Shown here: in pieces, positions 5,012 to 9,806 of the stretch
Numbering within the stretch: position 1 is the first letter of the stretch
Layout: each line of letters opens with the position of its first letter
Assembly (NCBI GenBank): GCA_965224025.1
Contig: OZ245033.1
Coordinates: 2,848,001-2,912,000 of the forward strand
Reading direction: 5' to 3'
Origin: Candidatus Multivorans sp.
Lineage (GTDB): Bacteria; Acidobacteriota; Thermoanaerobaculia; Multivoradales; Multivoraceae
Length of the DNA: 64,000 nt
Notes under the pieces: model-generated
What the model was told of the DNA's origin: nothing
Databases searched by the model: none
What the model saw: only the letters and a program-made list of their open reading frames with translations
Position numbers and translations under genes: made by a program

Positions 5012-6628
5012 CTAGCGCCCGAGGGCTCGGCGCTGCGCTTCGGCGTACCGCGCGAGCATCCGGTCGTAGACCGCGACTGCCTGGGGGCGAGGCGCGGCGG
5101 AAGGACCGGCCTCGCCGGCCGGCGGCAGAGGGTACGGCCTGCGCCCGGTCGCGCGTAGAGCGGCGCCCAGGGCTGCGCCGTCGCTGACCTCGTGCCCCTC
5201 GACGGTGCAGCCCATCACGTCGGCGGCGATCTGGAGCATCTCCCGATTGTGGGAGCCGCCTCCGGTAGCCAGAATCCGGCTGGGCCGGGTCGCCATCCAT
5301 TCCGAGTTGAGCCGCATGGACAGGAACTGCCCTTCGACGACGGCACGGCAGTTCTGAGCTGCGTGCTCCGGCGCATCCTCCAGGCCGTCCAGCCGAACGA
5401 CCCGCGGCGACGCCACGCGCGGGACGATCTCCGGTTCGAACCACGGCAGCATCATCTTGCCGTCGTTCCCGGGCGGAGTTGCCCGCAGCGACTCCTCGAA
5501 GCTTTGCCAGTCGAGACCGTGACGGTCCCGCACCGCTTCGCGCGCCAGCGACCCGTTGCGGAAGCAGATCAGGCTCATCGGATGACCGCTCGGCGCGATG
5601 AACACATGGCCGTTGGCATCGGGATCGACGGCGACATCGTCGAGCAGGCAGAAGTAGGTGTCGCTGGTCCCCAGGCTCAGCACAGCCTCACCCGGCTCGC
5701 GGACGCCGACGCCTACCAGGGAGCAGGGGTTGTCGCCGGAGCCGATGACCGCTTGCGCGTCCGCGGAAAATCCGTAGCGGTCCACGAAGCAGGGAGCGAT
5801 CTCTCCAACGATTGTCCAGGGCGGTTGGGACGGCAGTAGACGCCCGTCCAGCCCTTCGGCGGTGGCGGCAATGGCTGTTTCAGACCATTCCCGCCGCCGG
5901 ATGTCGAGCAGGTTCATGCCCGAACCGTCGCCGTGGTCGATCGGCGCCAGCCGGCCGGCAAGGACGGAGGTGACGAAGGAGCTGACCAGGCAGACGTGTG
6001 CGGTATCGGCCCATGCGTCGGGCTCGGTCCGAGCGAAGCGCCGGATCTGGGGCCCGGTGAAGCGCTCGAAGGCGTCGCTGCCGGTGAGTTCTGCGGTCGC
6101 TGCAGCGCCGCCGAGGGTGCGCCGAATCTCCGCGCACTCCCGCGTGGTGGAGGAATCGGTCCAGATCGGTGCTTCGGTGCGGGCAAGAAGAGGCTCGATC
6201 TGCTCCGCGAGGCCCCGGTCCGGGGTCAGGGACCGAAGGCCGGCCCCGGTTCCCGATCGGAGATAGACGGAGCCATGCTGCTGGCCCGACACCGACACGC
6301 CGCTGATCTTTCCGCACAGGTCGCTGCCCAGTCGTTCGAGCGCCAGGTCCAGAGCCTCAAGCCACATGCATGGTGGTACCCGTCCGATCGCCGGATCATC
6401 GTTGGGGAGCTGGCCGTTGACGGTGCCGAACTGAGGGAGTTCGGAGTCGTAGTGGACGCGTGCGCGCGCGGCGATCTCGAGCGCCCGGTCCTCGGCCTCT
6501 CCGTCGGGCGGCGTCGCCTCAACCAGAATTACGGTCAAGCTCTGTGTGCCGACATCGATTCCGAGGTAGAGGGCCCCACCGCCAGCGCGGTCGTCGCTCT
6601 GCGGTCGCCGCTTCGCGGCGCGTCTCAT
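5012..6628 (-). CDS. xylB: Xylulokinase (FGGY kinase)
   Basis: YLGIDVGTQS, SVSGQQHGSVY, ERFTGPQIR, GDNPCS, ATGGGS; downstream of xylA. Start set to ATG 6628 because the longer ORF runs into the IS. Confidence 0.88.
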   Translation of the reverse strand: MRRAAKRRPQSDDRAGGGALYLGIDVGTQSLTVILVEATPPDGEAEDRALEIAARARVHYDSELPQFGTVNGQLPNDDPAIGRVPPCMWLEALDLALERLGSDLCGKISGVSVSGQQHGSVYLRSGTGAGLRSLTPDRGLAEQIEPLLARTEAPIWTDSSTTRECAEIRRTLGGAAATAELTGSDAFERFTGPQIRRFARTEPDAWADTAHVCLVSSFVTSVLAGRLAPIDHGDGSGMNLLDIRRREWSETAIAATAEGLDGRLLPSQPPWTIVGEIAPCFVDRYGFSADAQAVIGSGDNPCSLVGVGVREPGEAVLSLGTSDTYFCLLDDVAVDPDANGHVFIAPSGHPMSLICFRNGSLAREAVRDRHGLDWQSFEESLRATPPGNDGKMMLPWFEPEIVPRVASPRVVRLDGLEDAPEHAAQNCRAVVEGQFLSMRLNSEWMATRPSRILATGGGSHNREMLQIAADVMGCTVEGHEVSDGAALGAALRATGRRPYPLPPAGEAGPSAAPRPQAVAVYDRMLARYAEAQRRALGR

Positions 6629-6868
6629 CCCGGAAGCCGGCCAGAAGGCCGGCGCACCTGTACCTTTCCGGGATGCATTCTGGCGTGTCGTTGAGAGAGG
6701 TGGAATGGACCAGTAGCCGTCGTGGCTGCGGTAGCTGTGGGAAACCGGCTTGCCGGTTTTCCAAGGTCCGGCGGGAAACGGTCTGCCGTTTTCCGCCGGG
6801 CCGGCAGCTTCCGCAGCCGAGACCGCCGGTCGGTTGCGTCTCCGGCCTGCCGGAGTCACTGAAGGAAA

Positions 6869-7023
6869 GTCGGCAAGCAGCCAGGAGCAACCACCGGCGT
6901 ACTGTGCTTCGAGCACCTGGCTGGGACCCGTGCCCTGGCTGCTTCGCCGCGTTGGACGCCCAGTGGAGAGTCAGTGCCTTAGAGCACCAGTACAGGTACG
7001 GGCAGGCAACGCGGCATGCCGAC
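6869..7023 (+). ncRNA. IS110 bridge RNA (target-binding and donor-binding loops)
   Basis: Stems 6875-6885/6934-6944 and 6946-6954/7007-7015 each enclose a GTGC..GCAC hairpin flanked by guides matching target (CCGGCGTAC, CTGGG) and donor (GTGGAGAGTC, GTACAGG); true transcript ends unknown. Confidence 0.88.
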
Positions 7024-7058
7024 CAGGCAACACTACCGCAAGGGAGAAGGAGGACGAG

Positions 7059-8312
7059 ATGACCAGGACGTGGTTCGTCGGCGTGGACTGGGGGTCCGAG
7101 ACCCACCACGTGTGTGTGCTGGATCGGGACGGCAAGGTGAGGGGGGAGCGGGCGTTCGACCACAGCGGCAAGGGACTTGCCGCCATGGCCGACTGGCTCC
7201 TTGGACATACCCGACCGACGTCTCCGGACGAGATCGGCGTCGCCATCGAGGTGCCGCACGGACCGGTGGTCGAGACTCTCCTGGAGCGGGGCTTCGCCGT
7301 GCATTCGATCAACCCCAAGCAGCTCGACCGCTTCAGGGACCGCTTCTCCGTCGCCGGCGCCAAGGATGACCGCCGCGATGCACGGGCGCTCGCCGCCGCG
7401 CTTCGCACCGACCCCGAGTGCCTGAACCGCGTGCAACCATCCGATGCAGCCATCGTGATGCTGCGCGAGGTGTCCCGCGGCCGCAAGCAGTTGGTCGGCC
7501 AGAAGAACCGCCTGGAGAACCAGGTCCGCGACCAGCTCTGGCGCTACTACCCGCAGTTTCTCGCCGTGGTCAAGAACGAGGTGTCGGCGCCCTTCGCGCT
7601 GGCCTTGTGGCGACTGGCGCCGACCCCCGACAAGGCTCGACGGCTGCGCGAAGACACGCTCGCCAAACTGCTCAAGGAACACCGCATCCGGCGCCTGACT
7701 GCCGCCCAACTGCGCGATCAACTGCGGGCCGAGCCGATCGCCGTTTCCCCGGACACCGTTAAGGCCGCCGTCGAACACATAGGACTCCTCCGGCCGGTGC
7801 TCGACACCGTCTGCCGCCAACTCGCCGACGCCGAAAGGCGGCTGGAGCGGATGACCCGCGCACTCGAAGCCGACCTCTCCCGGGAAAACGACGACGACAC
7901 GCCCAAGCCGAGCGACGCCGCCATCCTCAGGTCGCTGCCCGGACTCGGCAAGGTCGGCCTCGCCACCCTGCTCTCCGAGGCCGATCAAAGCCTGGGCCGC
8001 AGAGACTACGAGGCACTGCGTTGCCTCTGCGGAGTGGCGCCGGTGACCGTCAAGTCCGGCAAGAAGCTCATCGTCATGCGACGACTCGCCGCCAACGAAC
8101 ACCTCAGCGACGCCGTCTATCACTGGGGACGAGTCGCCATCCAGCACGACCCGATCAGCCGCGCCAAGTACGACGCCATGAAAGCCGAAGGCAAGACACA
8201 CGGACGAGCCATCAGACAACTCGTCGATCGACTCCTCGGCGTCGCCTGCGCCATGCTCCGAGACCGCACTCTCTTCGACCCCAACAAGAGAAGCCATGCC
8301 CAGGTCGCATGA
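7059..8312 (+). CDS. IS110 DEDD recombinase/transposase
   Basis: FVGVDWG, IEVP, KDDRRDA, SLPGLG, GVAPVTVKSG (catalytic Ser region); AGGAGG RBS. Confidence 0.95.
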   Translation: MTRTWFVGVDWGSETHHVCVLDRDGKVRGERAFDHSGKGLAAMADWLLGHTRPTSPDEIGVAIEVPHGPVVETLLERGFAVHSINPKQLDRFRDRFSVAGAKDDRRDARALAAALRTDPECLNRVQPSDAAIVMLREVSRGRKQLVGQKNRLENQVRDQLWRYYPQFLAVVKNEVSAPFALALWRLAPTPDKARRLREDTLAKLLKEHRIRRLTAAQLRDQLRAEPIAVSPDTVKAAVEHIGLLRPVLDTVCRQLADAERRLERMTRALEADLSRENDDDTPKPSDAAILRSLPGLGKVGLATLLSEADQSLGRRDYEALRCLCGVAPVTVKSGKKLIVMRRLAANEHLSDAVYHWGRVAIQHDPISRAKYDAMKAEGKTHGRAIRQLVDRLLGVACAMLRDRTLFDPNKRSHAQVA

Positions 8313-8441
8313 CCTGCCTGACCCGCAGCAACCTCCCCAAAACACACTTGCTAAAGGGTGGAGAGTCCCAGTCACGCTGGCGGACTGGTCCTGCCGCCCC
8401 CTCCGCTCTCTGGTCAGGCGGGTGCGTCCGCACGGCCGTCG

Positions 8442-9806
8442 TTACTCGATGTGGGTGCTGTACAGGTAGTCGTTGAGGATGCTCTCGAGCTCCTCCTGGC
8501 GGCCGCTGATCTTCGGCGGTTCGCCGAGTCGTCCGGCCCAGTCCTCGAGTTCCTCGAGGGTGGTCTCGCCGGCCAGGAGCTTGCGGCCGAGGCCGCGGCG
8601 GTAGCCGGCGTAGCGCTGCCGAATCCGCTTGCCGGCGAGGCCGAGGACGCCGTCCTTCCGGATGCGGTCGACGATCAGGAGCGCCTTGGCGAAGACGTCC
8701 ATCGACGCGATGTGGGCGTAGAACAGGTCAACGGTGTCAAAGGAGCCGCGACGGACCTTGGCGTCGAAGTTCAGGCCGCCCCAGCGCAGGCCGCCCTGGC
8801 CCTGGATGATGAGCAGGGCCAGGACGCATTCGCGGAGGCTCATGGCGAAGTTGTCCGTGTCCCAGCCGACGCCTTCCAGACCGCGGTTGATGTCGACGCT
8901 GCCGAGCATTCCGGCGCCCGCCGCGGTCGCCAGCTCGTGTTCGAAGGAGTGGGTGGCGAGCGTCGCGTGATTCGCCTCGACGTTGAGCAGGAAGTCGTCT
9001 GTCAGCTCGAACTCGCGCAGGAAGTTCAGGCAGTGCCCGCAGTCGAAATCGTACTGGTGGATGGAGGGTTCCTTCGCCTTGGGTTCGAGGAAGAACCTGC
9101 CCTTGAAGCCATGGCGCCGGGCGTAGTCGACGGCGAGCCGGAGGAAGGCGGCCAGTTGCTCGCGTTCGCGGCGCATGTCCGTGTTGATCAGCGAGGTGTA
9201 GCCCTCTCGGCCGCCCCAGAACACGTATCCGGCGCCGCCGAGTTCGATCGTGGCGTCGATGGCGCGCCGGACCTGGGCGGCCGCGTGGGCGAAGACCCGG
9301 GGATCCGGGTTCGTCGCCGCGCCGTGGGTGTAGCGCGGGTGGCCGAACAGGTTCGCCGTGCCCCAGAGCAGCTTGACGCCGGTCTCGCGCTGCCGGATTC
9401 GCGCCAGTTGGACGATCTCCTCCAGGTACTCGTTGCTCTCGGCGACAGAGCGGCCTTCGGGCGCGATGTCCCGGTCGTGGAAGCAGTAGTAGCGCACGCC
9501 GAGCTTGGTGAAGAACTCGAACGCGGCGTTGAGCGTCCGCTGGGCGACCTCGATCGGTGTCGACGCGTGGCTCCAGGGGCGGTCGTACACGGGATCCGGT
9601 CCGAACGGGTCCTGGCCGCCGCCCTTCAAGGTGTGCCAGTAGGCGACCGCGAACTTGAGTTGCCGCTCCATCGTGGAGCGGCCGACCTTCCGCGTGCGGT
9701 CGTAGTACTTGAACGCGAGCGGGTCGCGGCTGTCGGGGCCTTGGAAAGGGATCGCCGTCTGGATCTCCGGGAAGAACGGCTCGACTTGGGGGAAGAAGGG
9801 CGTCAT
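8442..9806 (-). CDS. xylA: Xylose isomerase (class II)
   Basis: FAVAYWHT, CFHDRD, FWGGREGY, LEPKAKEP, NVEANHATLA, GWDTD, GGLNFDAK. Confidence 0.97.
   Translation of the reverse strand: MTPFFPQVEPFFPEIQTAIPFQGPDSRDPLAFKYYDRTRKVGRSTMERQLKFAVAYWHTLKGGGQDPFGPDPVYDRPWSHASTPIEVAQRTLNAAFEFFTKLGVRYYCFHDRDIAPEGRSVAESNEYLEEIVQLARIRQRETGVKLLWGTANLFGHPRYTHGAATNPDPRVFAHAAAQVRRAIDATIELGGAGYVFWGGREGYTSLINTDMRREREQLAAFLRLAVDYARRHGFKGRFFLEPKAKEPSIHQYDFDCGHCLNFLREFELTDDFLLNVEANHATLATHSFEHELATAAGAGMLGSVDINRGLEGVGWDTDNFAMSLRECVLALLIIQGQGGLRWGGLNFDAKVRRGSFDTVDLFYAHIASMDVFAKALLIVDRIRKDGVLGLAGKRIRQRYAGYRRGLGRKLLAGETTLEELEDWAGRLGEPPKISGRQEELESILNDYLYSTHIE

Follow-up and report, generated by a model that had tools for sequence, protein, structure and literature searches.

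Work on the insertion sequence IS621 of Escherichia coli has shown that its recombinase depends on an RNA in vitro (PMC11208160). In each of the two loops of this bridge RNA, the 5' side corresponds to the top strand of the left half-site of a DNA partner, and the 3' side to the reverse complement of the right half-site (PMC11208160). The two bases 3' of each right guide, the handshake positions, find their partners in the other duplex once strands have been exchanged, and must not pair with their own (PMC11208158; 10.1101/2025.05.14.653916). IS621 was reported in repetitive extragenic palindromes (REPs), and throughout the IS110 family loop 2 tends to be constant and loop 1 variable (PMC11208160). 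These statements, like the comparisons with published systems below, draw on passages of the cited reports. The present study concerns an IS110-group element in a stretch of 64,000 nucleotides (nt) of Candidatus Multivorans sp., a member of the Acidobacteriota (assembly GCA_965224025.1, contig OZ245033.1, positions 2,848,001 to 2,912,000). We refer to this whole stretch as the window, and all positions without a contig name are counted from its first letter.

The element is intact and, judged from homology and covariation, very probably moves by bridge-RNA-guided recombination. Its anatomy, protein domains, catalytic residues and site specificity, the covariation of its stems, and the covariation of its guides with targets and ends all support this reading directly. 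A first-pass annotation of the window had proposed an IS621-type bridge RNA whose guides match this insertion site, and the proposal is borne out by the domains, the matches in the PDB, the strand logic, the sites of 15 out of 15 copies, and the covariation between guides and targets. The element is a new example of the RNA-guided bridge recombinases described in 2024, and not a new kind of system.

The likeness to IS621 (PMC11208160, PMC11208158; PDB 8wt6) is extensive, as far as those passages go. Both elements have a DEDD plus Tnp domain layout with five catalytic residues aligned, an RNA (here predicted) with two internal loops in a long left end, and the same strand logic in each loop, the 3' sides here being complementary to the right half-sites over 5-7 nt. 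Likewise, both have a 2-bp core common to target and donor together with handshake positions, targets in repetitive extragenic hairpin repeats, and a -35 box (here a -35-like hexamer) in the right end. On the other hand, the two proteins share about 20% identity, and the core dinucleotide is CC instead of the CT of IS621, as the first-pass annotation had noted. In addition, the outer stem of the present RNA encloses both loops (a comparison limited by the text passages from which IS621 is known here), two of its guides mismatch or wobble at the second core base, and a 120-nt twin-hairpin module separates the RNA from the terminus. No defining feature is lost through these differences, all of which are variations of kinds that the family papers accommodate, other cores and longer right guides among them.

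Three further groups of elements are close enough to be compared. ISCro4/IS622 of Citrobacter rodentium (10.1101/2025.05.14.653916; PDB 9t56) follows the same loop, guide and handshake scheme and is the second-best PDB match both by sequence and by fold; it differs in its CT core, its 341-residue chain, its enterobacterial host and its activity in human cells. ISPpu10 and ISPpu9 of Pseudomonas putida (10.64898/2026.03.19.712850; PMC12288879) are likewise multi-copy IS110 elements, with every copy inserted in a conserved intergenic repeat that has a GC-rich stem-loop on the 5' side of the bases that pair, a likeness drawn from their published description; their host phylum and target sequence are different. 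The IS1111 group ('seekRNA'; PMC11208160, PMC13604230) shares the recombinase family and the two-loop guide principle, but its RNA lies downstream of the gene, and it has a long right end and subterminal inverted repeats of 7-17 bp. A literature search found no paper that combines IS110, Acidobacteriota and bridge RNA; the supplement of Durrant et al. 2024, which contains thousands of predicted IS110 elements and bridge RNAs (PMC11208160), may already list this element or a relative.

Predicted guide RNA and recombinase of the element

Features of the element and its target are collected in Table 1. At both junctions the same CC core separates the element from host DNA: the left target half-site, the core and TGTAC follow each other on the left, and the right end of the element, the core and CAG on the right. 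The non-coding left end (6657-7058) spans 402 nt and the right end (8313-8368) 56 nt. Terminal inverted repeats linking the two termini are absent from the 25 longest of 48 inverted pairs. All strings and coordinates in the first-pass annotation were found in the sequence, base for base.

Table 1. Positions of the element, its predicted RNA and guides, its gene, and the adjoining target DNA
Feature	Position	Strand	Description
Whole insertion sequence	6657-8368	+	1,710-bp element plus the CC core seen at both junctions
REP-like hairpin in target DNA	6636-6653	+	GCCGGCC (6636-6642), loop AGAA, GGCCGGC (6647-6653)
Left target half-site and core	6649-6658	+	CCGGCGCA (6649-6656), CC (6657-6658); followed by TGTAC (6659-6663)
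-10-like hexamer	6661-6666	+	TACCTT; 2 nt inside the left end, past the core
Twin-hairpin module	6711-6834	+	Outer stem 6716-6737/6805-6826; hairpins 6738-6763 and 6765-6802
5' stem-loop	6840-6855	+	CTCCGG, loop CCTG, CCGGAG; just ahead of the two-loop body
Predicted bridge RNA body	6869-7023	+	Two loops closed by outer stem 6869-6874/7018-7023
Target-binding loop (loop 1)	6875-6944	+	Stem 6875-6885/6934-6944, 11 perfect pairs; inner hairpin GTGC-TTCGA-GCAC, 6904-6916
Left target guide	6894-6903	+	CCGGCGTAC (6894-6902) plus T; corresponds to top strand of left target
Right target guide	6920-6925	+	GCTGGG; reverse complement of CC-CAGC
Candidate target-loop handshake guide	6926-6927	+	AC; complementary to donor GT before the core
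Donor-binding loop (loop 2)	6946-7015	+	Stem 6946-6954/7007-7015, 9 perfect pairs; inner hairpin GTGC-CTTAGA-GCAC, 6974-6987
Left donor guide	6963-6972	+	GTGGAGAGTC; equals element right end 8358-8367
Right donor guide	6990-6996	+	GTACAGG; reverse complement of CC-TGTAC, 6657-6663
Candidate donor-loop handshake guide	6997-6998	+	TA; complementary to target (T)A before the core
Shine-Dalgarno-like sequence	7049-7054	+	GGAGGA; 4 nt ahead of ATG
Recombinase gene	7059-8312	+	417 amino acids (aa) plus TGA; RuvC-like DEDD domain, long coiled-coil region, Tnp domain with catalytic serine
-35-like hexamer	8348-8353	+	TTGCTA; within the right end, 15 nt before its terminus
Left donor half-site and core (right terminus of element)	8358-8368	+	GTGGAGAGT (8358-8366), CC (8367-8368); followed by CAG (8369-8371)
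Right target half-site	8369-8372	+	CAGT
Other loci of the twin-hairpin module, same genome	G000 C1:3672584-3672706, 2474161-2474283, 4048787-4048918, 1301954-1302035		

The predicted RNA body consists of two loops closed by an outer stem. A minimum-free-energy fold of 6860-7035 (-80.9 kcal/mol, z = -2.76) recovered the outer stem together with the stem and inner hairpin of each loop, and 4 of 200 shuffled sequences folded equally well. The outer stem GTCGGCA/TGCCGAC (6869-6875/7017-7023) is present but is counted here as six pairs, because A6875 cannot serve both the outer stem and the loop-1 stem. In orthologues with short left ends, a hairpin lies at the same relative place as the 6840-6855 stem-loop, as judged by reading the sequences.

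Each loop carries one guide on either side of its inner hairpin. The left target guide repeats the left target with a single T-for-C change, and the right target guide pairs with CC-CAGT through one G:T wobble; the latter had been given as CTGGG (6921-6925) and is here extended by G6920. Both right guides, for target and for donor, span the two core bases. The donor guides had also been described as long, which holds to a modest degree, the left match comprising nine non-core bases and one core base, and the right match two core bases and five others. All four guide matches, correctly ordered and spaced, occurred in none of 20,000 mononucleotide shuffles of 6659-7058, while the single guides were present in 2,804, 11,838, 12 and 624 of them.

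The protein contains the Pfam domains PF01548 (2e-33, residues 7-165) and PF02371 (Transposase_20; 1.7e-12, residues 288-371), and its sequence matches in the PDB are the bridge recombinases of IS621 (7e-12) and ISCro4 (8.4e-10) only. Residues D10, E64, D104, D107, S333 and G334 align to D11, E60, D102, D105 and S241 of IS621, its catalytic residues, with G242 (PMC11208158), and all six are invariant in 16 orthologues. An AlphaFold2 model built from these 16 orthologues (mean predicted local distance difference test score 74.3; predicted template modelling (TM) score 0.65) has IS621 as its top fold match (E 3.6e-11, TM 0.56 normalised to target), followed by ISCro4 (3.3e-10). The Azospirillum canadense locus L104, with a stop codon in the matched frame, was excluded from the protein alignment.

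Lengths of about 400 aa are common in the IS110 family. The first-pass annotation had called the 417-aa recombinase longer, which is true against the 326 aa of IS621 (PMC11208158), while beyond that comparison the length is not unusual. The extra length lies between the RuvC and Tnp domains, where residues 130-262 correspond to 131-172 of the IS621 chain (about 95 residues more). In the model, two long coiled-coil helices (130-163 and 231-276), longer than those of IS621, flank an additional bundle of short helices at 165-223. This inserted subdomain is rich in arginine, and L183, W184, P188-P190, R195, R197 and R209-R212 are invariant in the 16 orthologues.

Insertions in one genome and guides across orthologues

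The genome that carries the window (5.14 Mb, 67.5% G+C) contains 12 full-length copies of the element (97-100% identity). Two more copies have lost an internal part of the left end, and a further two are truncated. Whether the other copies share the target had been set beforehand as the point on which the guide reading would turn: all 15 copies with a left end are located at CCGGCG(C/T)A-CC. Similarly, all 15 right junctions read GAGT-CC and then C(A/G)G, with CAG (as CAG(T/C)) next in 13 copies and CGG (as CGGT) in two. One copy, L002, is 100% identical to that in the window. The 417-aa frame is intact in 10 of 14 copies, replaced by a 436-aa variant in three, and cut at 27 aa in one. The three variants (L008, L013 and L014) have a common frame change near the C-terminus, so that the product ends inside the right end, and they represent a sub-lineage, because two of the three also carry the left-end deletion. 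L007 carries a 2-nt excess and a frame that ends after 27 codons.

The 13-mer target is also present, unoccupied, at 44 sites in the genome, against a chance expectation of about 3 (a rough estimate from base composition). At the window site, the 3' arm of a REP-like hairpin runs into the left target. A hairpin of at least 5 bp with a 3' arm overlapping the left target accompanies 14 of the 17 occupied sites and 31 of the 44 empty ones, compared with 374 of 5,000 random positions. The target is the 3' foot of a REP-like hairpin repeat. Beside copy L002, on its right side (G000 C1:298600-298700), two empty sites, CCGGCGCACCCAGT and CCGGCGTACCCAGT, lie in tandem REP-like units; thus, the repeats are clustered, and matching sites adjoining an element are not all used.

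Three positions of the two-loop body differ among the 15 left ends, and position 6868, 1 nt ahead of the body, is variable too. Of the three, position 6900 belongs to the left target guide and is T in five copies and C in 10; the matching position of the target is T in four of the 15. All four T targets have CAGC on the right, whereas the C targets with a right flank (n = 10) have CAGT in nine cases and CGGT in one, the eleventh (L016) being without a right end. A guide with U at this position, together with GCUGGG, is therefore perfect on the GTA..CAGC allele and forms two wobble pairs on the GCA..CAGT allele. Of the five sites with the perfectly matched allele, 4 are occupied, compared with 9 of the 47 sites with the wobble allele (Fisher p = 0.011).

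Of 40 related genomes searched, four, which all belong to the same genus, contain homologues at 51-74% identity. A wider scan, with each species represented by a single genome, added 80 loci; these come from Candidatus Multivorans (92-94% identity, one at 77%), from Thermoanaerobaculia (65%), from many Vicinamibacterales (56-60%), from an Azospirillum, and from three other metagenome-assembled genomes. The ends CC-TGTACC... and ...GGTGG(G/A)(G/A)AGT-CC, core CC included, are common to all orthologues for which ends were found.

Stem covariation was assessed in an alignment of 27 distinct RNA regions. RNAalifold reported compensatory change in 15 of 32 pairs. A comparison of homologous left ends had been suggested as a check of the structure read from the window, and when that structure was counted on the 27 sequences, 90.8% of cells were paired and 16 of 36 pairs showed changes on both sides; the paired fraction and the change count were matched by none of 500 shuffles. 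Sliding the partners by 1-3 columns reduced the paired cells to 31-47%. Compensatory pairs are spread across all five helices: helix 2, in the target loop, has 13 pairs, of which seven changed on both sides (94.5% paired), and in the donor loop both sides changed in 4 of 9 pairs of helix 4 and in 1 of 4 pairs of helix 5.

The guides covary with the DNA that they face. This analysis covered 107 of 110 candidate loci in 31 guide classes, after exclusion of L015 (without a left end), L109 (5' half of loop 1 replaced) and L130 (no recognisable donor loop); L103 and L111, which were mis-anchored (own match 4), were kept in the averages. The mean longest exact match between the left flank and the 5' strand of loop 1 was 7.9 for an element's own loop and 4.0 across classes. 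On the right side, which comprised 26 classes since right ends were not found for five, the corresponding values were 6.3 and 3.7. Loop 2 is nearly constant among the orthologues and loop 1 variable, as is known of the family.

Single loci illustrate how far the targets diverge. For example, in L040 the left target and its guide are both GTCCGCGCACC, and the right flank CC-CAGAGA faces the guide TCTCTGGG. L081 has the right flank CC-CGGTT and the guide AACCGGG. The L088 group has GGGGTCCC on the left and TGAAAAGG on the right, and the L092 group GCGATCCC and CAAATGG. L097 and L128 have the same left side, with a right flank of CC-TCCCC and guide GGGGAGG in the former, and CC-TCCTC and GAGGAGG in the latter. 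Moreover, the left donor guide tracks the right end of the element, which is GTGGAGAGT, GTGGGGAGT (in G010, G013 and Vicinamibacterales elements) or GTGGGAAGT (in L081).

The candidate handshake bases also follow the published scheme. In the target loop, AC is not complementary to the target's own CA or TA, a statement that rests on reading the 27-sequence alignment. Of the two donor-loop bases, the first can pair with position 7 of the target in all but one of 107 elements (106; U-A, G-C or C-G) and the second pairs in only 45, and AC, which would be able to pair with the element's own donor, is found there in none of the 107.

Four orthologues have unusual junctions or RNA regions. L104, on a contig of Azospirillum canadense, and L118, from the Vicinamibacterales, both have the right end GGGGAGT-CC, but next to it stands TGTAC..., with which a left end begins, in place of the sequence predicted by their right target guides. 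These junctions could represent tandem or donor-like insertions, and a preprint on 'half-match recombination' may bear on them (10.64898/2026.08.31.748434). Two Vicinamibacterales loci, L109 and L130, have recombinase genes at 56-57% identity, and unrelated sequence replaces the 5' half of the target loop in L109 and most of the RNA in L130; they may depend on RNA supplied in trans, or they may be decaying.

Proposed mechanism and competing explanations

In the mechanism that we propose, the element would be excised as a circle in which the right end (GTGGAGAGT-CC) is joined to the left end (TGTAC...). Joining would set the -35-like hexamer 17 nt upstream of the -10-like hexamer, and transcription from this joined promoter would yield an RNA with the two-loop body (about 6840-7023) as well as the recombinase mRNA. 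The RNA would then be bound by the recombinase, with its RuvC-like residues D10, E64, D104 and D107 and its Tnp serine S333. Loop 1 would pair with both strands of the target CCGGCG(C/T)A-CC-CAG(T/C) at the foot of the REP-like repeat, and loop 2 with both strands of the circle junction. Strand exchange would take place at the common CC core, after which AC and UA, 3' of the right guides, would pair with the other duplex. By homology with IS621, recombination is expected to depend on the RNA and may be programmable through its loops.

The two hexamers are proposed as halves of a promoter that would be completed only when the ends join through one core. Both are found at the same distances in 21 of 21 orthologues examined, where the left-end hexamer is always TACC(T/C/G)T, and the right-end hexamer is TTGnnn in 20 (TTGACA in four) and TTTACA in one. 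A split promoter fits IS621, since the -35 box of its natural promoter is lost when the joined ends are trimmed to 22 bp (PMC11208160).

Several observations weigh against the bridge-RNA reading. A simple scan of 6600-7100, as integrated, found no sigma-70-like promoter and no terminator, so the promoter idea rests on the split hexamers. Sequencing runs were matched (seven in five studies, one on record as RNA, 0.05 share of sampled words), and no discrete RNA was seen in them; only one contig from an RNA library touches the region. This contig, X1 (345 nt, depth 5.27), spans 6646-6934 and reveals neither the strand nor the start or end of a transcript; it comes from a relative's copy, because it has 11 differences and a different left flank. 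The X2 and X3 contigs break at the left boundary of the element (6665). Neither a circle nor an empty-site form was present among the contigs of X1-X4, and none of them joined across the element. A scan of 6400-8700 against Rfam 15 (E up to 10) gave 11 weak unrelated hits, the best with E 0.63; this is not counted against membership among bridge RNAs, as Rfam 15 may hold no such model.

The core and the alleles of the guide add to these points. Full coverage of the core by every one of the four guides, as reported for IS621, is not seen here. At the core, the left target guide reads C and then U, where T6903 stands opposite the second core C and could form a U:G wobble with the bottom strand, and the left donor guide reads C and then A, a mismatch at the second base; in Vicinamibacterales orthologues, the left donor guide has UU facing the core. 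Two copies, L009 and L013, combine a C guide with a T target, and guide allele and target allele are not associated among the 15 copies (2/5 versus 2/10, p = 0.56). Such disagreement is what an RNA acting in trans would give, yet it does not support one. Finally, the shuffle figures for the stems overstate significance, because the orthologues share ancestry and one of them supplied the structure that was counted.

How much of the specificity lies in the RNA is a separate question. The REP-like hairpin may act as a second, structural determinant that is read by the recombinase, possibly through the helical subdomain at 165-223. This would refine the bridge-RNA reading and does not exclude it, but we regard it as a doubtful addition. 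The excess of hairpins at occupied and empty sites over random positions is in its favor; however, the rate at occupied sites (82%) does not exceed what the repeat itself would account for, with 70% at empty sites, and the hairpin is missing at 3 of the 17 occupied sites. A stem-loop gate was reported for ISPpu10 in a preprint (10.64898/2026.03.19.712850), and the inserted subdomain is conserved and arginine-rich in the 16 orthologues, yet the Vicinamibacterales orthologues keep the inserted region while their targets are quite different (GGGGTC-CC-TTTTC).

A bolder version appears unlikely. It holds that the Acidobacteriota-centred clade constitutes a distinct bridge-recombinase lineage with extra layers, and it comprises four features: that the arginine-rich subdomain (about 165-223) gates on the REP hairpin, that the CC core tolerates a second-base wobble or mismatch in two guides, that the U/C polymorphism of the guide serves two alleles of the host repeat, and that the twin-hairpin module shared with IS21-like elements is an insulator or an RNA-stability cassette.

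Recognition of the REP-like repeat by protein alone, with the complementarity of the loops incidental or left over, is very improbable. The targets are repeated, structured DNA of a kind that proteins could read, and no discrete RNA was seen in the sequencing runs. Nonetheless, loop 1 changes with unrelated targets over 31 classes while the proteins remain 57-94% identical, the stems covary as in an RNA, and the homologous IS621 is RNA-dependent in vitro. Least credible of all is that the left end works as a cis-acting mRNA leader for translation or stability, or as a set of binding sites at the DNA level, instead of a guide acting in trans: the structure does lie directly upstream of the gene, ending 36 nt ahead of the ATG, and would be co-transcribed with it from the proposed junction promoter, but the ribosome-binding site (7049-7054) is outside the structure.

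Bridge recombinases are under development as programmable tools for insertion, excision and inversion of DNA. In a screen in human cells, a detectable product was obtained from only 18 of 72 natural orthologues, according to the part of the report consulted (10.1101/2025.05.14.653916); with so low a yield, well-defined orthologues with other core dinucleotides are of practical value. The present element offers a CC-core orthologue from a high-G+C host and leaves the known workings of such elements unchanged. Its natural documentation is unusually complete: the ends are known exactly, 15 insertions share one motif, 44 sites stand empty, one guide position differs among copies, and a series of orthologues combines varied targets with constant donor ends and a constant CC core. 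As regards the host, the element points to an active mobile element that spreads via a REP-like repeat family.

Twin-hairpin module and neighboring genes

The twin-hairpin module occupies the stretch that separates the left terminus from the predicted bridge RNA and is outside the guide RNA core. Its two hairpins are near-identical (GGGAAACCGG..CCGGTTTTCC), and it is very stable, with a predicted folding energy of -85.7 kcal/mol (126 nt folded). The module is missing from copies L013 and L014 and from orthologues with short left ends; the distance from the left terminus to the RNA is about 200 nt here versus 35-43 nt in Vicinamibacterales and Azospirillum elements. It recurs at 84-87% identity at four other loci of the same genome (Table 1), where it is preceded by a common terminal-looking sequence. 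At two of these four loci, a gene with a Walker-A motif, which by eye resembles IstB of the IS21 family, is found immediately downstream in the opposite orientation. The module could be a portable insulator, a terminator or an RNA-stability cassette.

The element is located between two genes on the minus strand, a xylose-isomerase-like TIM-barrel gene (PF01261; 5012-6631) and an FGGY sugar-kinase gene (PF00370, PF02782; 8442-10115). It lies about 25 nt upstream of the kinase start and may separate the kinase from an upstream promoter.

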